Counted from the first letter of the stretch, positions 5,204 to 20,886 are shown. The stretch: 64,000 bases of DNA from Acidilobaceae archaeon (GCA_025058835.1 JANXEI010000001.1:42311-106310), one strand, 5' to 3'. Program-made: numbers and translations. The notes: generated by a model from the sequence alone, not told the origin.

Positions 5204-6189
5204 CTCAGGCCAAAAGGTAGCTTCGTGAGGCTCCTGAAGGCCCTCCTCCTAGTCAAGCCCAATATCCCTTCTGGCATGAGGACCATGATGAGCACTATCA
5301 TGAGCCCCATCACTAGGAACCAATGGATAGTGATCATCTGGGCTATCGTTTCCAAGTAGGTGTACACGAGGGCGCCAAGTATGGGGCCCAGGAAGTGGCC
5401 GGCGCCGCCGAGGATGGTCATGAACACTATCTTGCCCGAGAAGGTCCAGTAGGCGAGGTCGGGGGTCACGAGCCTGTTAAGGGGCGCATAGAGGGCTCCA
5501 GCTATCCCAACATACGTTGCAGAGATCGCGAGAGCTATCAGCTTGTACCTCCAGCTCTCCACGCCCAGCGACCGGGCCCTGTCTTCAGAATCCCTAATGG
5601 CCCTCAGCGTGTAGCCAAAGGGGGAGTTAACTATGTACCACATGGCTAATGCTAGGATCACGAACCACAGCAGGCTATAGTAGTGGTAGACGAGGTTGAA
5701 GGCGTGATAGGAGAGAGGGGCGGTGTCGTAGATGAGGAGCAGCAGGGGCTTGGGGGCCCTAACGCCGTCCGTGCCTCCCGTTATGGAGTAGAACTTCACG
5801 TAGAACCCCCAAGTTATCTGACCTACCACGAGCATGAGGATGGCGAAGAAGATCCCTCTGTACCTCACCGCTACCGAGCCCACGAGGAAGGCGAAGAGGG
5901 CAGAGAGGAGGGCGGCAATGAGCAGGTGCAGCTCGAGGGACTTTAGCCCGAAGTACTTGGCAGAGAGGCCCACCGTGTAGGCCCCTATGCCGAAGAAGGC
6001 TGCATGGCCGAAGCTCAGCAGGCCCACGTGGTGGAACAGGAGGTTAAAGCCGAGGGCAGCTATGGCGAGCACGGTGCCGTAAGTAAGCATTATCTCCCAG
6101 CCTGGCCTAAGGAAGGAAACGATGGGGTAGAGGAGCGCCACCGCTACTGCTATGCCCACTATAACCCAGGGACCCCCTTCCCTTACCAC
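5200..6189 (-). CDS. livM: Branched-chain amino acid ABC transporter permease (LivM type)
   Basis: 329-aa polytopic membrane protein with a NLLFHHVGLLSFGHAAFFGIGAY motif; 4-nt overlap with livG. Confidence 0.8.
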   Translation of the reverse strand: MVREGGPWVIVGIAVAVALLYPIVSFLRPGWEIMLTYGTVLAIAALGFNLLFHHVGLLSFGHAAFFGIGAYTVGLSAKYFGLKSLELHLLIAALLSALFAFLVGSVAVRYRGIFFAILMLVVGQITWGFYVKFYSITGGTDGVRAPKPLLLLIYDTAPLSYHAFNLVYHYYSLLWFVILALAMWYIVNSPFGYTLRAIRDSEDRARSLGVESWRYKLIALAISATYVGIAGALYAPLNRLVTPDLAYWTFSGKIVFMTILGGAGHFLGPILGALVYTYLETIAQMITIHWFLVMGLMIVLIMVLMPEGILGLTRRRAFRSLTKLPFGLR

Positions 6190-7079
6190 CCCTTCCCACC
6201 TCCTATGCCCTCAGGCCTGAGGAGTAGCACGAGGAGGGCCACGGCAAAGAGGATCACGAGCTCCAGCTCTGGGAAGAAGTAGACCGAGAGGGTCCTGAAG
6301 AGGCTCACGAGGAGGGCCCCTATGGCAGAGCCTATGAAGCTCCCCATGCCCCCTATGACGAGTCCCACAAAGGCCACTATGAGCACCTCTGAGGAGAGGC
6401 CGGGCATGGCTGAGGCTATGGGCAAGTAGAGCGCCCCGCCGAGGCCTGCGAGAAGAGAGGCTAGGACTACCGCAATTATCACGAACCTCATGACGTTTAC
6501 CCCTAAGGCGGAGGTCATCTCAGGATCCATAGAAATTGCCCTGAGCGTTAGGCCGAAGAGGCTCCTATAAGTGATCAGCCAGAAGAGAAGGGCAAGGAGG
6601 GCCGCGAAGGCTATTACGTAGATCTTGTAGAGAGGATAAGGGGAGCCGAAGATCTGGACGCTGCCCATCTCGACGAAGGCGTCCCCTGCCTGCTGCGGCG
6701 CCCTTCCCCAGATTATTAGGAAGAGCTCCTCGAAGATCATGAAGAGGCCGAAGGTGACTATTAGCTGGAAAGCGTCCCCTTTCCCGTAAGAGTACCTCAG
6801 GATGGGCACGACGAGTAGGAGTGAAACTATAGCTGTTATCACTGCAGCCACGATGAGGGGGAAGACGAGGAGGGCGAGAAGGCTCTCGAAGCGCGCCGCC
6901 ACAAAGCTGGCTGTGAACCAGGCCGTGACGTAGGCCCCCAGCGTGAAGAGGGAGGCGTGAGCTAGGTTAACGATGCGGAGGACCCCGTAGACTATGTTCA
7001 GTCCTGCCACCACGAGGAAGAGGAGGGAGGCAAAAAAGAGGGTATCAAGTAAGTAGCGGGCTATGGTATCGAGGCTCAA
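6183..7079 (-). CDS. livH: Branched-chain amino acid ABC transporter permease (LivH type)
   Basis: 298-aa polytopic membrane protein with NLAHASLFTLGAY and a LivH-like C-terminus (LLLRPEGI); overlaps livM. Confidence 0.8.
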   Translation of the reverse strand: MSLDTIARYLLDTLFFASLLFLVVAGLNIVYGVLRIVNLAHASLFTLGAYVTAWFTASFVAARFESLLALLVFPLIVAAVITAIVSLLLVVPILRYSYGKGDAFQLIVTFGLFMIFEELFLIIWGRAPQQAGDAFVEMGSVQIFGSPYPLYKIYVIAFAALLALLFWLITYRSLFGLTLRAISMDPEMTSALGVNVMRFVIIAVVLASLLAGLGGALYLPIASAMPGLSSEVLIVAFVGLVIGGMGSFIGSAIGALLVSLFRTLSVYFFPELELVILFAVALLVLLLRPEGIGGGKGW

Positions 7080-12907: not shown

Positions 12908-15856
12908 CTAGATCAGGGTCTCCTCCAGGAGCTTTACGTATACCTGCGCGAGCCAGTCGTGGGCCTCCCTCTCTCCCTCCACGTCCATCCCGAACAACTC
13001 CTTCAGTACCAGCTTGTCCAGCTCGTAGCGAAAGCCCTCGCCCCTCCTGGCAGCCCGCAGCTGCTCCCTGAAAGTGCCGAGGCGTAGACGAGATTTCTCA
13101 TCGAAGAAGCGCAGGAAAGCTGACATAGCTGAGGGAGAGAGCCTCTGCTCGTCCACTAGGAGTAGCTTTGGGAGGGAGCTCTTGACGAAGTGGAGGTAGG
13201 AGCCGCTGCTGTCCTGCCGCAGGGAGAGGAAATGGAGGAGGCCCGGCGTGCTCGTTAGCCAGAGGGCCTGGAGCTTCGCTATCTCTTCGTCTTCCTTCGG
13301 GCTCGGGTGTAGGGGGACGGACCAGGCAAGGGGAGATATTAGGGGCTCCTTGTAGAAGAGGACGACGGTTCCAACGCTCTGCAGCCCCACCCTCCCTAGG
13401 CCAGCTACAAGGAGCCTGCCTGCCCTCCTGAGGCACCTCTCGTTAGTGCTCATGGTCCTTAGAACTCCCTCAGGGAGGGCTAGGCTGGAGAGCGCATCTC
13501 TGTTCAGGTTCCACAGGGACCTTGCCGTCCTGTCTCCCTTCACGCATATCTCCCTAAAGATCCTTGAGTCGTAGCCTGTCACCTCCTCCCACCCCTCGCT
13601 ATGCCGCGCAGATACGTATTGCGATAACGGCACAAGGGGGGCAGGAGGGGAGTGCTGGGGCTGGCTGAGGGAGAGGAGGAGCCTCTTGTTGAAGAAGAGC
13701 TCGAAGGCAGCGGCAGAGAGGAACGAGTCGTGGAAGCCCACTGCCACGTTGAGGTTGCCTGCGACGTGGGCTGCCCTCTCCATTACCTCTCTCTCAACAG
13801 AATATACGTACACAGCTGGCACCGGCTGCCCCCTCTCCTTGATCGCTATCGCCTCCGTGCGAGAGAAGCCGAGGGGGGCAGGCTCCAGCGATTGGGCAAC
13901 GCTCTTTATTGCCTTTGCGTACATCTCTGCCGCCGTCGAAGACTTCGGGAACTTCCTCACGTAAGCTACGGCAGTTCTATCCCTCTCTCGTGCCTTCTTG
14001 TACACCAGCAAGACCTCGCTGAGCCCCGTGTTCTCGCTCCACGCCCACTTGGCTGCGGGGTCGTCTGAGATAATCAAGTAGGGGAGGCTGCCTCTCCTCA
14101 TCAAAAACTCCCTTACGGGCGCCCAATCGGTGCCGCTGAGAAAGGTCCGCGGGAGCACTAGCGCAGCTACGCCCTCCTCCCTTAGCACCTTGTAGGCTAG
14201 AAGGGTGAAGTAAGTGCCTAGCCCCGCGCTCCCGAAGCCCGTAGAGAGGCCAAGGGAGAGCCGCATGGATCTCCCTAGCCTCGCCAGCTTCTCGAGGACC
14301 TCCCTCCTCTGAGCTTCGGGCAGGTGGCCGAAGAGGACGCCGCGGCCCGCATGGCCGCTCCTCACAAAGGGAGGGTTCATTATCACGAGGTCGAAGGGGT
14401 CCATAACGAGGCCCTCCGCCGAGGCCCTCTGCGCGGTAGCCTTAGTTGCTGATACGCTGTCCTCCCCGAAAGGGGTCTTCACGCGCGGGAACTTTACCTT
14501 CCCTTGCGAGACCTCTAGGCTGAGGGAGCCCAAGAAAGCCTCGCCCTCTACGACCCCCAGAGGCACCACGTACGTGTTAGTGTGGCTGACAGCTACGCTC
14601 GGCCTCCTCATGACGAGGGAAGCGGCGGTGAGGTGGACGGCGTGTTCTAGCACGTCGAAGCCGTACAGGACCTCCTCGAGCAGGGCCCTGTGGAGCTCGC
14701 CCAGCTGCTGTCCAGCGTGCTGGGGGGCACTAGCTATGAACCTGCTCATAACATCGCCGTAAACGGCCGACAGCAGCGTTCCGGAGCCGCATGCTAGATC
14801 GCCCACCCTGAGCTTCCTCACCTCCTCTACGCTCCCCCACTCCACTTTCAGCAGGTCCAGGGCGAGGGAGGAGAGGATCACGGAAGCGGGGATTGAGGTG
14901 TAGAAGGTGCCTAGCCCTTTGGCCAATTTCCTGAGCAGCAGCCGATGATAGAGCCTGCCCGCCAGGTCGTGCCTGAAAATGGCCTTCTTTGCAACTGCCT
15001 GGCTTGCCCTCCTAGAGAGCTCAAGCAAAATGGAGGAGACGGCATGGTGGGGAGGGAGGACCTTCACCGCCTTCCTCACGATCTCGAAGACTTGCTCGTA
15101 GTTCACCTCCCGGATCCTCTCCCACTGCTCCGCGAGCCAGCCTGCAGGATCTCCCCTGTCTATGGCGCGAAGTGGGGGGAGGCCGGGGACCGCGCCGGTG
15201 CTAGCCAGGGCCTCGTGGACTATCATGGCGTTGGTTATCATGAAGAGAAGGGACTTGGCCTTCGCCTCATCGCTCGTGCCCTCTTCTCGAAGCTCCAGCG
15301 CCTCCTCTGCTATCTTAGCAAGGCTCTCCAGTAGCCTTCCGTCCAGGTCGGAAACCAGTTGCAGGACCTTCATGATCTCCTTCGCTATCTCCTCCACGAC
15401 CTCCCTCTCCAGCAGGCTCTCGTATATGCTCCTCTTCTCTAGGATCTGAGCTAGGTCGGGAAGCTTCAGCCTCCCCAGATCCAAGGTCTCCAGGGGGGCC
15501 ACTATGCTCACAACGTGCTCTAGCTCCTTCAGCTTCTCCTCTGCTTCGCTCAGAGAGCGTGCAGCCCTCACCTCCTTGTGGTACGCTATGGCAATGCAGA
15601 GATCTGCAATCCCCTCCTCCAGCCTCTTGTTGCAATCTCTCTTAACCTCCTCCCCCTTCTCATGGCCCACCTTTGCTTCCACTATTACAGTGATCCCCAT
15701 AGCATCTATGAACATCCCATCAGGCCTGGCCCTAATGCCTCCCCTCGTGACCAGAGACTCGCCAAGCTTCGTGCGGAAATAGTCTGAGAGGAGGTCCTCC
15801 AGGATCCTCATCGTTATCGAGTTAATGCTCTGCTCGGCGGGAGTGCTCATCCGCAA
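12908..15856 (-). CDS. Type IIG-like restriction-modification fusion: N-terminal PD-(D/E)xK nuclease motif, gamma-class N6-adenine DNA methyltransferase, C-terminal putative specificity region
   Basis: 982 aa with RPDGMFIDAMGITVIVEAKVG (D...ExK), GTFYTSIPASV, motif I GDLACGSGTLL and motif IV VIMNPPF. About 450 aa lie after motif IV. Confidence 0.7.
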   Translation of the reverse strand: MRMSTPAEQSINSITMRILEDLLSDYFRTKLGESLVTRGGIRARPDGMFIDAMGITVIVEAKVGHEKGEEVKRDCNKRLEEGIADLCIAIAYHKEVRAARSLSEAEEKLKELEHVVSIVAPLETLDLGRLKLPDLAQILEKRSIYESLLEREVVEEIAKEIMKVLQLVSDLDGRLLESLAKIAEEALELREEGTSDEAKAKSLLFMITNAMIVHEALASTGAVPGLPPLRAIDRGDPAGWLAEQWERIREVNYEQVFEIVRKAVKVLPPHHAVSSILLELSRRASQAVAKKAIFRHDLAGRLYHRLLLRKLAKGLGTFYTSIPASVILSSLALDLLKVEWGSVEEVRKLRVGDLACGSGTLLSAVYGDVMSRFIASAPQHAGQQLGELHRALLEEVLYGFDVLEHAVHLTAASLVMRRPSVAVSHTNTYVVPLGVVEGEAFLGSLSLEVSQGKVKFPRVKTPFGEDSVSATKATAQRASAEGLVMDPFDLVIMNPPFVRSGHAGRGVLFGHLPEAQRREVLEKLARLGRSMRLSLGLSTGFGSAGLGTYFTLLAYKVLREEGVAALVLPRTFLSGTDWAPVREFLMRRGSLPYLIISDDPAAKWAWSENTGLSEVLLVYKKARERDRTAVAYVRKFPKSSTAAEMYAKAIKSVAQSLEPAPLGFSRTEAIAIKERGQPVPAVYVYSVEREVMERAAHVAGNLNVAVGFHDSFLSAAAFELFFNKRLLLSLSQPQHSPPAPLVPLSQYVSARHSEGWEEVTGYDSRIFREICVKGDRTARSLWNLNRDALSSLALPEGVLRTMSTNERCLRRAGRLLVAGLGRVGLQSVGTVVLFYKEPLISPLAWSVPLHPSPKEDEEIAKLQALWLTSTPGLLHFLSLRQDSSGSYLHFVKSSLPKLLLVDEQRLSPSAMSAFLRFFDEKSRLRLGTFREQLRAARRGEGFRYELDKLVLKELFGMDVEGEREAHDWLAQVYVKLLEETLI

Positions 15857-15948
15857 GGAAGCGTCCCGCCGAAACGCGGGGGCCCATGGATATATGCGCT
15901 GATGCGATGAGGGGGAAGGTAGGGCCTTGTGTCAGGACCTCTGGAATA

Positions 15949-16545
15949 TTACCTTTTGATCCTCTCCACGAAGTACTGGTGGAGCCTTCGCTCTCCTGTG
16001 ATCTCCGGATGGAAGGTCACAGCGATCATGTTGCCCTGCTCTGCGGCAGCCCCCACCCTACCGAGCTCCGGGTGATCAACGTAGCCCGTTATCCTGCTCC
16101 TCCCCCAAGCTTCAGCTATCGCAGGAGCCCTGATGAAGGCCACTTTCAGCCTCCCCACCCTCTCCACCTCGAGCTCTGCTATGAAGGACTCCCTCTGCCT
16201 GCCGAAGGCGTTCCTAACTACTGCTATGTCCATCAAGCCCAGGAGGGGCTGTGAGGTCTCCCCCACGACCCTGTCCTTGACCCTGCTGGCCAGCAGGATA
16301 GCCCCTGCACAAGTCCCTAGGATGGGCACCCCCTTCTCTGCCAGCTCCCTTATGGGCTCCACGAGCCCAGAGGCGATCAAGAGCCCTCCAATGGTAGTGG
16401 ACTCCCCCCCGGGGATCACGAGCCCCTCCACGCCAGCCAGATCTCTGGGCCTCTTCACCGCCTTAGCCCTGACGCCCAGCTCCTCCAGCAACTGGAGGTG
16501 CTCCAGCACGTCCCCCTGGAGCGCCAGCACCCCAACTGTTACCAT
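15949..16545 (-). CDS. pdxT: Pyridoxal 5'-phosphate synthase glutaminase subunit PdxT
   Basis: [17 protein letters not shown], catalytic GTCAG, 198 aa; 1-nt overlap with pdxS. Confidence 0.9.
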   Translation of the reverse strand: MVTVGVLALQGDVLEHLQLLEELGVRAKAVKRPRDLAGVEGLVIPGGESTTIGGLLIASGLVEPIRELAEKGVPILGTCAGAILLASRVKDRVVGETSQPLLGLMDIAVVRNAFGRQRESFIAELEVERVGRLKVAFIRAPAIAEAWGRSRITGYVDHPELGRVGAAAEQGNMIAVTFHPEITGERRLHQYFVERIKR

Positions 16546-17552
16546 TACTCTCCCCTCACCTGCATCAGCTGCTCGGGCTTGAGGGTCCTGATGTCTATGC
16601 CCATCATGGAGGCCTTCTCCGAGATCATCTTCTGCGCCTCAGCCACGGTCTCTGGATCGTCGTAGTGAGTCGTTGCCAGCACTATTGCCCTAGCCCTCCC
16701 CTCAGGATCTTGGCTCTTGAATATGCCGGAGCCCACGAAGATCCCATCTGAGCCCAGCCACATCATGAGGGCCGCGTCTGCCGGAGTAGCTATGCCCCCT
16801 GCCGCAAAGTTCACCACGGGGAGCCTCCCTAGCCTCGCTGTGAGCAGGGCGAGCTCGTAGGGCACCTTGTTCTCCTTTGCATAAACCCATATGGCCTCGT
16901 AGTCCCCAGCGAGGTAGTAGCCCCTGAGGGTGGCTATGTCCCTGTTAACCAGCTTCATGTGCTTCACTGCCTCAGCAACGTTCCCTGTGCCGGGCTCGCC
17001 CTTTGTCCTGATCATGGCGGCCCCCTCGTAAATTCTCCTCAGCGCCTCCGGCAGGTTCCTTGCCCCGTTAACGAATGGCGTCTTGAAGTCCCACTTGTTT
17101 ATGTGGCTCCTCTCGTCCACTGGTGTTAGCACCTCGCTCTCATCTATCAGATCCACCCCCAGCTCCTCCAGGAGCCTTGCCTCCTCCCTGTGGCCTATCC
17201 TGCACTTTGCAGAGATGGGTATCGTGACGGCGTTAGCTATCGCAGCGATCACGTTCGCATCAGCTGTCCTAGCCACCCCCCCTGCCATCCTCACGTCGTA
17301 AGGCAGCTTGTCCAGGATCATTACCCCCACTGCCCCGGCGTCCTCAGCTATCTCTGCCTGCTTCTCGTTAGTTACGTCCATTATGACCCCGCCCTTGAAC
17401 ATGGAGACGAAGCCGAGCTTGACGAGGGGGGTCGCCTGCCTGATCCCCAGCCCCTCCTCCCTCCTCCTGTCCCTCTCCTCCAGCAGCTCGTAGATGAGCT
17501 CCTTCAGCCTCTCCACGTAAGCGTAACCGTCTACCAGTTTCACTCCCTTCAC
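16545..17552 (-). CDS. pdxS: Pyridoxal 5'-phosphate synthase lyase subunit PdxS
   Basis: 335 aa with [32 protein letters not shown] and [17 protein letters not shown] motifs. Confidence 0.9.
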
Positions 17553-17596
17553 CCCTTCCTCCTTAGCTAGGAGAAGATTAAGGCTTTATTGAACGT

Positions 17597-18661
17597 TCAA
17601 CAGAGCCTGTACATCTTCACCTCCCTCTCCCCCTTCCGGACTATGTCGTAACAGATCTCCCCCCTCTCCTCCAGCTCCCTTGCAGCCTTGTAAACAGCCC
17701 TCAGGGTGAAGACAGGCCTCTCCTTCCAGATCTCGTAAGCGGTCTTCCTGCCCCCCTCAAGGGCTGAGAGCACCAGCCTCTTCACAGAGCTCCTCCCAGG
17801 CCTGAGAGCGGGCCTTACTGCCACAGTCACCACTGCTATCGCGTCGCCGAGGGAGGAGGCTACCGCGTAACCTATGGCCGCGAGGGGCTTCACGCGGAAC
17901 CCCTTGGCGGAGAGCTTGGTCAAGGTCTCGTACACCTCTTCCTCCCCCACCTTCTCCACCCTTACCGGCAAGCCCTCCAGGAGGGGCGGATCCCTCCCAC
18001 GGAGGCTCGCCCCCACCACCTGGTAAGGGCACTCCGCCCCTGCCCTCTCCAGGTCCCTCAGCCCTTTTAGGAGCGAGAGGGCCAGGAGGCCGCTCTTGGA
18101 GGGGGCTACGATGAAGCTCTCCCTCGCCCTCTGCTCGCAGATCTCCAGCGCTATTGTCTTCAGCCCCTCCACGCTCCAAGGGCTAGCATAATCTACACTT
18201 GGGGCCTGGCTCCTTGTGACAAGGCGGGCACGGGAGGTGAGGACAGCTAGGTCCTCTGCCTCGAGGGCAAGGGGGTCGGGGGCAATTACCTCCACCTCCG
18301 CTCCCTCCAGATACCTCACCAGCGACCGGGAGAAGTCGGGCTCGTAAAGGCTAGAGACCCTCTCCCAGCCCCTGCTGGCGACGTAGGAGGAGATGAGGGC
18401 AGATGCCCTATCTGCATAGGAGCCCGTGGGGTTGAACCTCTCGTTCTTCACCCTCACCCCGTCTACGGAGGTGAGGGGGGTAAGGCCCTCGCCGAGGGAG
18501 CGCCTTACGGGCAGGGAGGGGAGCATGCTCCAATAGCGCCATATGCCTTTCTCCTTCCTCTCTACTCTGAAGGCCACTTCCTCGAGGAGGACTGTGGCCA
18601 CAGCGCCGCACTTGGGGCACCTCTCCTCCTCTGTGGGGCCGTGCCTCAGGCACTCGTACAA
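17597..18661 (-). CDS. Threonine-synthase-like (fold-type II PLP) domain lacking the Schiff-base lysine, fused to a C-terminal winged-helix-like segment
   Basis: An N-terminal Cys pair (CPKC) is followed by GIWRYWSMLP, SLGEGLTPL and NPTGSYADR. The family signature is NPTGSFKDR; codon 18413-18415 is GCA = Ala. C-terminal tail: RLVLSALEGGRKTAYEIWKE...ELEERGEICYDIVRKGEREVKMYRL. Confidence 0.6.
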   Translation of the reverse strand: MYECLRHGPTEEERCPKCGAVATVLLEEVAFRVERKEKGIWRYWSMLPSLPVRRSLGEGLTPLTSVDGVRVKNERFNPTGSYADRASALISSYVASRGWERVSSLYEPDFSRSLVRYLEGAEVEVIAPDPLALEAEDLAVLTSRARLVTRSQAPSVDYASPWSVEGLKTIALEICEQRARESFIVAPSKSGLLALSLLKGLRDLERAGAECPYQVVGASLRGRDPPLLEGLPVRVEKVGEEEVYETLTKLSAKGFRVKPLAAIGYAVASSLGDAIAVVTVAVRPALRPGRSSVKRLVLSALEGGRKTAYEIWKERPVFTLRAVYKAARELEERGEICYDIVRKGEREVKMYRLC

Positions 18662-18710
18662 AGGTCCTCCAAATATATTTCCTCGCTAGAAAATATATAT
18701 TGGTGATAGG

Positions 18711-19124
18711 TTGCTCGTCTCAGAGCTCTTGAGGAGGGAGCCCGTTAAGGTAAGCCCCCTTCACTCGATCGCCGAGGCCTCGCGGGTCATGGTAGAGAAC
18801 AAGGTCGGGAGCGTGCTTGTGGTAGAGGGCGAGAGGCTGGTGGGCATATTCACCGAGAGGGACCTGCTCAGGGCCGTGGCGGCCGGCGCTCCCCTTGACT
18901 CGCCCGTGCAGGCATTCATGAGCAGGAACCTGATCACTGTATCGCCGAGGGACACAGTGTACAGGGCGATAGAGCTCATGACAACGCATAACATCCGCCA
19001 CCTGCCGGTAGTGGAGGGGGACAAGCTAGTTGGGGTGATATCGATAAGGGACGTGGCTGAGTGGATCAGGAGGTCCATGGCTGAGAGGATGGCAGAGGCT
19101 GAGATGGGTCACTTCGTGGGCTAA
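18711..19124 (+). CDS. CBS-domain pair protein
   Basis: 137 aa with two CBS repeats (VGSVLVVEGERLVGIFTERDLL ... HLPVVEGDKLVGVISIRDV). Confidence 0.85.
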   Translation: MLVSELLRREPVKVSPLHSIAEASRVMVENKVGSVLVVEGERLVGIFTERDLLRAVAAGAPLDSPVQAFMSRNLITVSPRDTVYRAIELMTTHNIRHLPVVEGDKLVGVISIRDVAEWIRRSMAERMAEAEMGHFVG

Positions 19125-19288
19125 CCTCGCGAGAGCCCACAGGTCGCAGAGCTGCTCCAGCTTTTCTCCGCCTCAGAGCCGTGAGGAAACTCAGACAGCT
19201 CGACCGAGTCTGTGCGCCCATCTGTGATCCTGAGCGCTGTATCGAACGGGAGGGCGCTGCAGGTAATATTTGCTGGAAGGAGGGCTAG

Positions 19289-19380
19289 TGCCGCCGCCGG
19301 GATTCGAACCCGGGACCTCCGGATTTCCCAGGCTGAGGCCGTATGAGTCCGGCGCTCTACCAAGGCTGAGCTACGGCGGC
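19289..19380 (-). tRNA. tRNA with CAT anticodon (elongator Met or Ile2) and a 17-nt canonical-position intron
   Basis: The reverse complement folds as GCCGCCG-TA-GCTC-AGCCTTGGTA-GAGC-G-CCGGA-CTCATA[intron]A-TCCGG-AGGTC-CCGGG-TTCGAAT-CCCGG-CGGCGGC-A. Confidence 0.85.
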
Positions 19381-19412
19381 CCCTAAGCTGAGGAGGAGGG
19401 GATCCTTATATT

Positions 19413-20504
19413 TTAGAAGGGCTCGTCCAGCCTGGGCTCTGCCCGCTCCCCCAGCCTCTCCAGCCCAGCGTAGAGCATCCTCAGCGCCTCCATCTCGCTC
19501 CTCGCCTGCCTAGGCGGGTGCTTGAAGTAGAAGGCAGAGGCCCAGTCCAGGCTCCCCCTGAGGCCGTGATCCATTGCCACCTTTGCCACCCTTATCGCAT
19601 CTACCAGCACTGCGGATGCCATGGCCTTGTCGTCTACCTTCAGCCTCACCTCCACCTCCACCTCGCTCCCTGCAAAGGCAAGGGCCTTCAGGTAGATGTG
19701 GGAGACCTTGGTGTTCCCCAGGAAGGGCACATAGCCGCTTGGGCCTGCATAGACCCTCTCCTCCCTCACCACCTCCTCGGGCCTCTCCTGCGTGCTCGCC
19801 ACAGCCATGGTTTTGCTCTCCTTCTTGCTAGCCAGCCTCTCCCAGGCCAGCATGTTCTTGAAGTCCGTGTTCCCCCCCACGTTCAGCTGGTAGGTCTCGA
19901 GGAGCCTAGCTCCTCTCCAGCGCACCAGGCTTGCCAGGGCCCTGTGGACTGCAGTGGCGCCCAGCTGGCCCTTTATGTCGTCCCCGAGCACTGGGGCGGG
20001 GGAGGGGAAGCCCTTGCTGGCTATGAAGACCGGGATGGCGTTCACCAGCGCTGCTCCAGCCTGCGCTGCTGCAGCAGCGTAAAACCTGGAGGCCTCCTCG
20101 CTCCCCACGGGGAGGAGGTTGAGCAGCACCTCCACCCCTGCGTCCTGCATCTCCCTAGCCAGCTGGGAGAGGGTGGGCTCCTCTGCCCTTGCGGGCCTGA
20201 AGTCCTCTACCATGTGGGGGGCCACGCCGTCCAGCACCTTCCCCATCCTCACCGTCACGCCCCTCGCTACGGGCGCGAACTTCCTCACGCTGTTAGGGAA
20301 GGCGAAGATGGCCTCTGAGAGGTCCCTCCCCACCTTCTCCCTGGAAACGTCCACGGCATAGACGAACCTGATGTGAGCAACCTCGTACTTGCCTATCTTC
20401 TCGTGTATCAAGCCCTCTGAGCTCCCCAGGCTCCTGTAATACTCTACGCTCTGCACAAGCATGGCAGCAACGTTCCCTACCCCCACTATGCCCACGTTGA
20501 TCAA
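19413..20504 (-). CDS. myo-Inositol-1-phosphate synthase (archaeal type)
   Basis: 363 aa with an N-terminal Rossmann motif MINVGIVGVGNVA and a GGNTDFKNM motif. Length and layout fit archaeal MIPS. Confidence 0.65.
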   Translation of the reverse strand: MINVGIVGVGNVAAMLVQSVEYYRSLGSSEGLIHEKIGKYEVAHIRFVYAVDVSREKVGRDLSEAIFAFPNSVRKFAPVARGVTVRMGKVLDGVAPHMVEDFRPARAEEPTLSQLAREMQDAGVEVLLNLLPVGSEEASRFYAAAAAQAGAALVNAIPVFIASKGFPSPAPVLGDDIKGQLGATAVHRALASLVRWRGARLLETYQLNVGGNTDFKNMLAWERLASKKESKTMAVASTQERPEEVVREERVYAGPSGYVPFLGNTKVSHIYLKALAFAGSEVEVEVRLKVDDKAMASAVLVDAIRVAKVAMDHGLRGSLDWASAFYFKHPPRQARSEMEALRMLYAGLERLGERAEPRLDEPF

Positions 20505-20574: not shown

Positions 20575-20886
20575 ATGGAGACGAAGGCTCTGGAGAGGCT
20601 GAGGAGGAAGATCACGCTGGAGAACCTCTGGATGTACGTGGTGAAGATACTTGCAGAGGAGGGGCCGCTCAGGGGGTACGAGGTGAAGAAGAGGCTGGAG
20701 GAGCGCTACGGCATAAGGCCCGCCACGGTAACGGCTTACGTGGTGCTCTACAAGATGAGCAGGGAGGGGCTGATAGAGGCCGTGAGCCTCGGGGGGGACA
20801 CCCTCTATAGGCCCACGGAGAAGGGGCTCAGGGCCCTGGAGGAGGCGAGGAAGATACTGGAGTGGGCTAGCAAGAGCATCTCATGA
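20575..20886 (+). CDS. PadR-family winged-helix transcriptional regulator
   Basis: 103 aa with LWMYVVKILAEEGPLRGYEVKKRLEERYGIRPATVTAYVVLYKMSREGLIE, which is a typical PadR core. Confidence 0.75.
   Translation: METKALERLRRKITLENLWMYVVKILAEEGPLRGYEVKKRLEERYGIRPATVTAYVVLYKMSREGLIEAVSLGGDTLYRPTEKGLRALEEARKILEWASKSIS

Follow-up and report, generated by a model that had tools for sequence, protein, structure and literature searches.

The question raised by the locus

What does a protein built like threonine synthase (ThrC), but without the lysine of its active site, do directly upstream of the pyridoxal 5'-phosphate (PLP) synthase genes pdxS and pdxT? The question is raised by positions 15,949 to 18,661 of a 64,000-nucleotide (nt) stretch of an Acidilobaceae archaeon (GCA_025058835.1, JANXEI010000001.1:42311-106310), called the window in the following. 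The protein, 354 amino acids (aa) long, ends in a winged helix-turn-helix (wHTH) domain. Judged from sequence comparison, it is probably a transcription factor of a vitamin B6 regulon that acts at a palindrome in front of pdxS. Computation establishes a ThrC fold without the catalytic Lys, a wHTH, synteny with genes of B6 synthesis and with vitamin-type transporter genes, a conserved palindrome, and co-variation of operator and protein subfamily.

Features of the protein

The open reading frame (ORF) starts with TTG and contains GIWRYWSMLP, SLGEGLTPL and NPTGSYADR, so that the 354-aa ORF and the early ThrC signatures reported in a first-pass annotation of this DNA were reproduced from the sequence at 17597..18661 on the minus strand. 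Pfam PALP matches the protein with an E-value of 5.6e-13, an identical database protein (P0001) exists in an Acidilobaceae metagenome-assembled genome (MAG), and an AlphaFold2 model built from an alignment of 30 sequences has a predicted local distance difference test (pLDDT) score of 91.5. The gene and the parts of its product are as follows.

17597..18661, minus strand: ThrC-like pseudoenzyme-wHTH gene, candidate B6-responsive transcription factor (ORF; Pfam PALP; AlphaFold2 model)
18587..18661, minus strand: zinc-ribbon-like N-terminal segment, residues 1-25, with C4, H7, C15 and C18 (cysteine conservation)
17816..18586, minus strand: fold-type II ThrC-like core, residues 26-282, presumed ligand-sensing domain (Foldseek; alignment with ThrC paralogues)
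18413..18415, minus strand: codon GCA of Ala83, at the Schiff-base Lys position of NPTGSF-K-DR (sequence; ThrC alignment)
17792..17815, minus strand: flexible linker, residues 283-290 (the only model segment with pLDDT <50)
17600..17791, minus strand: C-terminal wHTH, residues 291-354, H1-H2-H3 and beta-hairpin wing, with recognition helix TLRAVYKAAREL (DSSP; tail models)

The first-pass annotation had described the core as ThrC-like, and the model bears this out. For the fold of residues 1-282, the top 19 Foldseek matches in the PDB are threonine synthases (E-values 1e-13 to 1e-10), led by 6nmx (1.4e-13) and followed by 2zsj and 1uim; other fold-type II enzymes appear further down. Structure prediction was needed for this result, since a sequence-only PDB search with the whole protein gave weak ThrC matches (best E-value 1.4e-3). 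The N-terminal zinc ribbon is shared with the archaeal ThrC paralogues in the alignment. In alignments A1 and A3, C15 and C18 are invariant. C4 is so in A3 and nearly so in A1; C7, nearly invariant in A1, is replaced by His in the window protein.

The active site is that of a pseudoenzyme. The replacement of the Schiff-base Lys by Ala, noted earlier in NPTGSYADR (GCA at 18413..18415), is read directly as codon 83, and Lys is found at this position in none of the 74 family clusters (Ala in 54, Ser in 14, Thr in 3, Val in 2, Met in 1). With such a spectrum of residues the replacement is ancient and not due to chance, and non-nucleophilic residues can replace one another at the position. In the alignment with archaeal ThrC paralogues that keep the Lys, which confirmed the loss of this residue, the S-x-G-N substrate loop has likewise become x-x-D-F, and the large domain has a deletion of about 40 residues. 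The earlier remark that the glycine-rich cofactor loops look degenerate thus holds for the substrate loop and the deleted segment, but not for the whole of the phosphate-binding loop, where (S/T)-G is retained and G191 is invariant in the family. All NCBIfam threonine-synthase models score far under their cut-offs on the 354-aa protein: the best, PRK05638, reaches 79 bits (cut-off 421) in three fragments, PRK06450 reaches 58 bits (cut-off 301), and TIGR00260 gave no match in the NCBIfam scan. Relatives of the protein are nevertheless labelled 'threonine synthase' or 'PLP-dependent enzyme' by the source databases.

The last 65 or so residues had been read as a wHTH from the sequence, and residues 291-354 do fold as one. 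DSSP assigns helices 292-301, 308-314 and 320-332 and strands 336-343 and 346-353 in the AlphaFold2 model. Folded alone, the tail reaches pLDDT 91.3, and this tail-only model superposes on wHTH regulators with template-modelling scores of 0.85 (Bacillus subtilis YodB), 0.83 (Pyrococcus furiosus Phr) and 0.86-0.89 (operator-bound B. subtilis PadR). A profile of 24 family tails finds PadR and FUR regulators in the PDB (best PadR 5dym, E-value 9e-4), and Pfam assigns TrmB to 11 and PadR (PF03551) to 8 of the 24 when they are searched singly. Pfam gave no significant match for the tail of the window protein alone, so the assignment rests on the family profile together with the predicted structure. 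The putative recognition helix is the best-conserved part of the tail, its motif (T/S)-L-R-(G/A)-x-Y-K being retained in 72 of 74 clusters. The C-terminal dimerisation helix or domain of PadR-type proteins is absent; as the protein terminates right after the wing (strand 346-353 of 354 aa), dimerisation would have to come from the ThrC-like core.

The wHTH tails of two relatives, P0056 from Ignisphaera aggregans and the L066 protein from Thermoproteus sp. AZ2 (5983..6987), look frameshifted, which could reflect an assembly error or decay.

Genome context and distribution

At cluster level 72 homologues of the 354-aa protein were found, all in Thermoproteota: Acidilobaceae, Desulfurococcaceae, Ignisphaera, Thermosphaera, Thermofilum, Hyperthermus butylicus, Conexivisphaera, Methanomethylicia and a branch of the Thermoproteales. 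In the profile search, scores drop sharply beyond the members of the family. When one genome of each GTDB species was scanned with the family alignment, 144 loci were confirmed; the 80 best of them were retrieved, and about 67 of these are true family loci.

The two genes downstream of the regulator gene in the window are the following.

16545..17543, minus strand: pdxS, PLP synthase lyase subunit, 332 aa from GTG 17543 (PF01680, 307 bits; NCBIfam PRK04180, 457 bits, cut-off 395)
15949..16545, minus strand: pdxT, PLP synthase glutaminase subunit (PF01174, 169 bits; TIGR03800, 189 bits, cut-off 105.55)
17549..17555, minus strand: Shine-Dalgarno-like GGGGTGA before the probable pdxS start (GGTG(A) block conserved in orthologous loci)

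The start of pdxT overlaps the stop of pdxS by 1 nt (TAATG). Both genes are co-directional with the regulator gene, and the 44-nt gap given by the first-pass annotation is correct when measured to the pdxS start of the ORF finder at 17552 (335-aa form). The real start is probably the second GTG at 17543, since the 332-aa protein P0073 matches it and orthologues start with M-K-L-V-D after the GGTGA motif.

Conserved linkage to pdxS and pdxT is seen across genomes. In about 38 of the approximately 67 true family loci, pdxS-pdxT is directly adjacent to the family gene and on the same strand. The order of the window, regulator-pdxS-pdxT, occurs in 6 loci; in the remaining adjacent loci the regulator gene comes after pdxS-pdxT, the gaps frequently being 4-30 nt. 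The cultured H. butylicus, with its family gene at about 1,046,681..1,047,841 in CP000493.1, belongs to the latter. The existence of two gene orders indicates that the linkage survived rearrangement. Look-ups anchored on PdxS gave pdxS-pdxT-regulator in four of six cases. Two clusters of pdxST and the regulator gene, with opposite gene order, were found in one Desulfurococcus sp. MAG (L007 and L035, both NZ_JAVZPN01), possibly as the result of a duplication or of a mixed bin.

Other family genes adjoin transporter genes. In two loci (L004, L009) the neighbours are a PF07155 S component of the energy-coupling factor (ECF) type, a fused EcfA-A' ATPase and EcfT; in three (L033, L040, L042) a transporter of the major facilitator superfamily (MFS); and in three more (L005, L054, L055) a family-5 solute-binding-protein (SBP_bac_5) ATP-binding cassette system. 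The B6 transporters PdxU and PdxU2/HmpT belong to PF07155/COG4720 (PMC9997740). The family gene in L037, L041 and L047 has either a true ThrC paralogue or a PLP-dependent Cys/Met enzyme in its vicinity. In Acidilobus and 'Hestiella', a ThermoDBP-related gene (PF10015) follows the family gene (L050, L051, L058, L061, L063, L065, L075, L044, L059), with no palindrome nearby and, for the Acidilobus neighbour, no obvious link to B6.

A conserved palindrome at the pdxS promoter

The internal promoter of pdxS is predicted from two elements.

17589..17600, no strand: perfect 12-bp palindrome TTGAACGTTCAA, candidate operator, overlapping the TGA stop of the regulator gene at 17597..17599 (motif scan, 40 or more genomes)
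17575..17582, minus strand: TATA-like box CTTAATCT, internal pdxS promoter (conserved 'tTAa' from 7 nt past the palindrome, 46-site alignment)

The palindrome is unique in the window, even when up to two mismatches are allowed, and 0.0013 exact matches would be expected. From its centre it is about 51 nt to position 17543, where pdxS probably starts, and 42 nt to the ORF-finder start at 17552. The first-pass annotation had put forward 18662..18710, upstream of the regulator gene, as one of two regions to be tested for binding. No copy of the palindrome within two mismatches is present there, and the candidate site is instead 17589..17600, upstream of pdxS. An Rfam scan of 15500..19600 returned no riboswitch, the only hits being a tRNA and a sub-threshold snoRNA-like match.

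When the regions upstream of the first operon gene are aligned, the palindrome is found before pdxS in practically all loci in which the sequence upstream of this gene is present. In 878 kb of fetched loci the exact 12-mer was observed 23 times (0.06 expected) and its 10-mer core 35 times (0.9 expected); with at most one mismatch, the palindrome is present in 41 family loci. Its centre is located 34-54 nt upstream of the pdxS start in either gene order, with the start extrapolated by tblastn to the 335-aa form of the window; measured to the homology-supported M-K-L-V-D start, the distances are about 9 nt longer. In H. butylicus the distance is 70 nt, the site at the pdxS promoter being TTGAACGTTCAG at about 1,044,975 in CP000493.1. 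The palindrome also stands 40-48 nt before the MFS genes and, in L004 and L009, between the regulator gene and the ECF S-component gene. Upstream of the regulator gene itself it was found once, in L055. In the 26 family loci that have no B6-type neighbour, a relaxed search did not turn up so much as the 8-bp core, bar one stray match containing GAACGT. Autoregulation at these loci is thus not supported, and in this sequence comparison they act as an internal negative control.

An alignment of 46 sites has the consensus tcTaTTGAACGTTCAAtAA.g.tTAa and suggests that the palindrome may extend to 16 bp, (Ta)TTGAACGTTCAA(tA). The common layout is the palindrome, 6 nt at the position of the transcription factor B recognition element (BRE), a TATA-like box, a further 25-35 nt, the GGTG Shine-Dalgarno-like block and the M-K-L-V-D start. 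The 6 nt between palindrome and TATA-like box in the window are TAAAGC (17583..17588). The assignment of TATA and BRE is deduced from archaeal promoter geometry.

The palindrome is also found where the regulator gene is not a neighbour: one locus (L088) contains pdxS-pdxT and an exact copy without an adjacent regulator gene. Members of the family that are unlinked to pdxST occur in the Thermoproteales (P0194, with Met at the Lys position, and the L066 protein of Thermoproteus sp. AZ2), which makes action in trans plausible, although this evidence comes from different genomes and not from one and the same genome. In Vulcanisaeta sp. JCM 14467 (L082, 4947..4958) a symmetric variant, TTAAACGTTTAA, with both half-sites changed, occupies the same position before pdxS; here, too, no regulator gene is adjacent.

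Candidate operators of distant subfamilies

Distant relatives with 26-31% identity (loci L068-L080) share the domain layout of zinc ribbon, ThrC-like core and PadR-like wHTH at the C-terminus. They include two groups.

Desulfurococcales/Staphylothermus group (L068-L072): about 435 aa; Arg at the Lys position (NPTGSFRDR); neighbours PF07155 ECF S component, EcfAA' and EcfT; palindrome TTCTTAAAGAA
Bathyarchaeia group (L074, L077, L079, L080): 471 aa; Lys kept (NPTNSFKDR); neighbour PF07155 ECF S component; palindrome ATAGTTnnAACTAT

The palindrome of each subfamily lies directly upstream of its PF07155 gene. Among 89 loci, TTCTTAAAGAA has four matches, all in the Desulfurococcales/Staphylothermus group, and ATAGTTnnAACTAT has three, all in the Bathyarchaeia group. 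The putative recognition helices differ as well, with TLR(G/A)VYKA in the window family, SVQAVYQHL in the Desulfurococcales group and TIGAVYQHI in the Bathyarchaeia group. To each of the three subfamilies thus belongs a palindrome of its own, while the class of target stays constant, as would be expected if the proteins are DNA-binding factors. On PRK05638, the L068 protein scores 513 bits, above the cut-off of 421, and the Bathyarchaeia proteins score 376 bits, below it. The name 'threonine synthase' is probably wrong for the PRK05638 proteins in which Lys is replaced by Arg.

A broader reading, to which slightly less than an even chance is given, is that all archaeal ThrC-like proteins with a C-terminal wHTH, PRK05638 included, could form one superfamily of B6-sensing transcription factors. 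The series would run from a Lys-containing and possibly catalytic 'trigger enzyme' (Bathyarchaeia) through the Lys-to-Arg form (Desulfurococcales) to the Lys-to-Ala form of the window. Each would have its own operator, control PLP synthesis and/or uptake, and sense PLP by reversible, non-covalent binding in a pocket once shaped for covalent catalysis.

Proposed mechanism

The role of a B6 regulator, proposed earlier for the 354-aa protein, is supported by comparative genomics (fold, loss of Lys, wHTH and linkage to pdxST) and is sharpened by the candidate operator. DNA binding by this protein, its ligand and the sign of the regulation are deduced as follows. The sensor would be a ThrC-derived pseudoenzyme holding a B6 vitamer reversibly in its former active site. 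With the Schiff-base Lys and the substrate loop lost, it could bind such a vitamer only reversibly and without turnover. A B6 vitamer is rated somewhat better than even as the ligand, and PLP, the product of PdxST, would be the likeliest one. The flexible linker would join the sensor to the PadR/MarR-like wHTH at the C-terminus, and the protein would bind the palindrome, probably as a dimer, next to the BRE and TATA box of the pdxS promoter and elsewhere to those of PdxU-family ECF or MFS genes.

Without ligand, the protein might bind and help to recruit TFB and TBP; accumulated PLP would then bind the sensor and release the protein, and both synthesis and uptake would be turned off. Activation followed by deactivation is favoured because the site lies directly upstream of the core promoter, as with the archaeal riboflavin regulator RbkR. 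An activator is accordingly given a narrow preference over a repressor: a PLP-dependent repressor that occludes the BRE would lead to equivalent feedback and is only slightly less likely.

In the window, the regulator gene would be transcribed from its own palindrome-free promoter, and pdxS-pdxT from an internal regulated promoter with the operator overlapping the regulator stop. No oligo-T run follows the regulator stop codon in the sequence inspected, and read-through from the regulator gene probably provides basal expression of pdxST.

Several points weigh against this interpretation. Most loci were gathered by anchoring on the regulator gene, so that the co-occurrence of gene and motif is partly built in. 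The pdxS promoters compared are from archaea that have the family or may have it, which leaves room for another palindrome-binding factor. About one third of the family genes have neither a B6-related neighbour nor a nearby site, and PF07155 is not specific to B6. The Asn that contacts O3' of PLP in the enzymes is lost in the family, as is the Lys, so that binding of PLP is not guaranteed. Finally, a palindrome of 16 bp would reach the BRE position, and the sequence does not fix the sign of the regulation.

Alternative explanations

The alternative that survives best, although still unlikely, keeps a transcription factor at the palindrome and changes its effector. The protein would sense a substrate of PdxST or a compound of ThrC chemistry, either an amino acid or a phospho-amino acid (threonine, O-phosphohomoserine), and B6 supply would be tuned to amino-acid metabolism. 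The loss of both PLP-contacting residues, Lys and Asn, fits this, as do the descent of the domain from an enzyme of amino-acid metabolism and the few loci with a PLP-dependent Cys/Met enzyme or a true ThrC paralogue nearby (see above). However, it is the S-x-G-N loop for the substrate that is most degenerate, while the phosphate loop for the cofactor is partly kept; the target genes serve B6 synthesis and vitamin-type transport rather than amino-acid metabolism; and sensing of the end product is the rule for the vitamin regulators cited here (PMC5320631, PMC5397151).

About half as probable is a non-regulatory accessory of PLP synthase, that is, a non-covalent acceptor, carrier or chaperone that takes PLP from PdxS and uses the wHTH for protein-protein contacts. 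The gene often stands within the pdxS-pdxT operon at gaps of 4-30 nt, and a PLP pocket without Lys could hold PLP reversibly. The means by which free PLP is held at a low level in cells are described as an open question (PMC9997740). Yet the gene is also tied to transporter operons at loci without pdxST, and in the Thermoproteales examples (P0194, L066) it is unlinked to pdxST. Each subfamily is accompanied by its own palindrome, and the tail is closest to DNA-bound regulators, with the putative recognition helix as its best-conserved part.

Slightly less probable still, the palindrome could be the site of another regulator of B6 genes, with the ThrC-like protein a co-regulated member of the regulon. 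The absence of sites near family genes without B6-type neighbours would agree with this, and so would the site or its variant upstream of pdxS without an adjacent family gene (L088, L082). Against it, three different regulators would then be needed for three palindromes, each tracking one ThrC-like/wHTH subfamily; the protein itself carries a well-formed wHTH, and the unlinked Thermoproteales members could act in trans.

A divergent PLP enzyme that has stayed active by means of another residue or an external aldimine is very improbable: the fold, part of the phosphate loop and the database labels would suit it, but the active-site Lys is missing in every member with a varying replacement (A, S, T, V, M), the substrate loop and about 40 aa are lost, and every ThrC model stays far below its cut-off.

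Further features of the locus

18662..18710, no strand: divergent promoter region of the ThrC-like/wHTH gene and a CBS-pair gene, with two A/T-rich boxes at 18691..18700 and 18671..18680 (sequence)

The CBS-pair protein (137 aa, 18711..19124, plus strand) is divergent from the regulator gene, a position kept only in the closest Acidilobaceae loci (L001, L002). An inverted repeat between the two genes, ATATATTT-N10-AAATATAT (18671..18700), was considered as an operator and rejected. It is better read as the two TATA boxes of the divergent regulator and CBS promoters: each box is about 30-40 nt from the start of its own gene, and the boxes recur with different sequence in L001 and L002.

Before the Pfam SOR_SNZ domain, which begins at residue 43, PdxS has a charged, helical-looking N-terminal extension of about 40 aa (17430..17543) that is kept in related Thermoproteota loci. 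On the far side of pdxT, a 982-aa ORF (12908..15856, minus strand) shows weak Eco57I/N6 DNA-methylase signatures and an NPPF motif, and possibly encodes a type IIG/IIL restriction-modification enzyme. ARAGORN assigns Tyr with anticodon 'ata' to a tRNA gene at 19288..19380 (minus strand; Rfam 62.9 bits), but the length of this gene, about 92 nt, exceeds that of an ordinary tRNA; an intron is probable, which makes the assignment doubtful. Just upstream of the locus are a myo-inositol-1-phosphate synthase-like gene (19413..20504, minus strand) and a small stand-alone PadR-family regulator (20575..20886, plus strand).

Comparison with known systems

The literature searched, in which subscription journals are incompletely covered so that absence is not proven, contains no description of the protein, of the motif or of any archaeal B6 regulator; the statement of the first-pass annotation that no archaeal B6 regulator of this kind had been described is in line with this. 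The protein is apparently the first candidate B6 regulator in Archaea and would be an enzyme-derived transcription factor that senses an end product. If the proposal is true, it would be the first archaeal B6 regulator and would define a new class of transcription factors with a fold-type II PLP-pseudoenzyme as sensor. The operator TTGAACGTTCAA is testable, and the predicted regulon comprises pdxST, PdxU-family ECF transporters and an MFS transporter. Archaeal B6 transporters were called poorly studied in a 2023 survey (PMC9997740), and the regulon would provide functional leads on them. Confirmation of the proposal would also correct the labels 'threonine synthase' and 'PLP-dependent enzyme', which mislead the reconstruction of amino-acid pathways in Thermoproteota. 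Thermostable, responsive to PLP and with a compact operator, such a factor could be used as a part of biosensors.

With ThrC (EC 4.2.3.1; PDB 6nmx, 2zsj, 1uim) the protein shares the fold and the motifs GIWRY, GEGxTP, NPTGS-x-x-DR and EGxKT. It differs in having no Schiff-base Lys and no S-x-G-N loop, in its internal deletion and in the added wHTH, and is not a threonine synthase. The archaeal proteins of about 435 aa in PRK05638/NF004170 are closer in design, with zinc ribbon, ThrC-like core and C-terminal wHTH, no Lys in the Lys-to-Arg members examined (NPTGSFRDR), PF07155 neighbours and a palindrome in between. In the window protein, which is shorter by about 80 aa, the active site is much more degenerate, and the recognition helix and candidate operator are different; its subfamily is the one linked to pdxST, and the protein is not a member of PRK05638.

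Among archaeal vitamin regulators, ThiR is reportedly a ThiN-domain regulator of thiamine genes in Crenarchaeota. For RbkR, a riboflavin kinase and regulator, an activating role was deduced for sites located 1-12 nt before promoter elements, and in the proposed 'activation-deactivation' model flavin mononucleotide releases the factor (PMC5397151). As in RbkR and ThiR, an enzyme domain is fused to a wHTH, the gene clusters with genes of synthesis and transport, and the candidate operator is a few nt upstream of promoter elements. The enzyme domain of RbkR and ThiR is related to their pathway, whereas the window protein concerns another vitamin, has another fold and is a pseudoenzyme, and its parent ThrC is a user of PLP and not an enzyme of the B6 pathway. 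In architecture, clustering and operator the protein belongs to the functional class of RbkR and ThiR, not to a homologous family.

The aminotransferase-like domain of the bacterial regulator PdxR keeps its Lys and binds PLP as an aldimine. PdxR, of the MocR/GabR subfamily of GntR regulators, is the closest system in function. It is a one-component regulator of pdxST and in some species of pdxK and pdxU, and senses PLP in a feedback loop; the PdxR/MocR subfamily is stated to be absent from Archaea (PMC5320631). Both proteins combine a wHTH with a domain resembling a PLP enzyme; control of pdxST, exerted by PdxR, is predicted for the window protein from the palindromes at the pdxS and transporter promoters. 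The first-pass annotation had suggested an analogue of PdxR built from a different PLP fold, and the folds do differ: in PdxR a GntR-type wHTH at the N-terminus is joined to an aminotransferase-like domain of fold type I, whereas the window protein has a ThrC-like core of fold type II without Lys and a PadR/MarR/TrmB-like wHTH at the C-terminus. In further contrast to PdxR, its candidate site is a compact palindrome of 12-16 bp. If the proposed role is correct, the archaeal system would have converged with bacterial PdxR, of fold type I, on the control of B6 supply.

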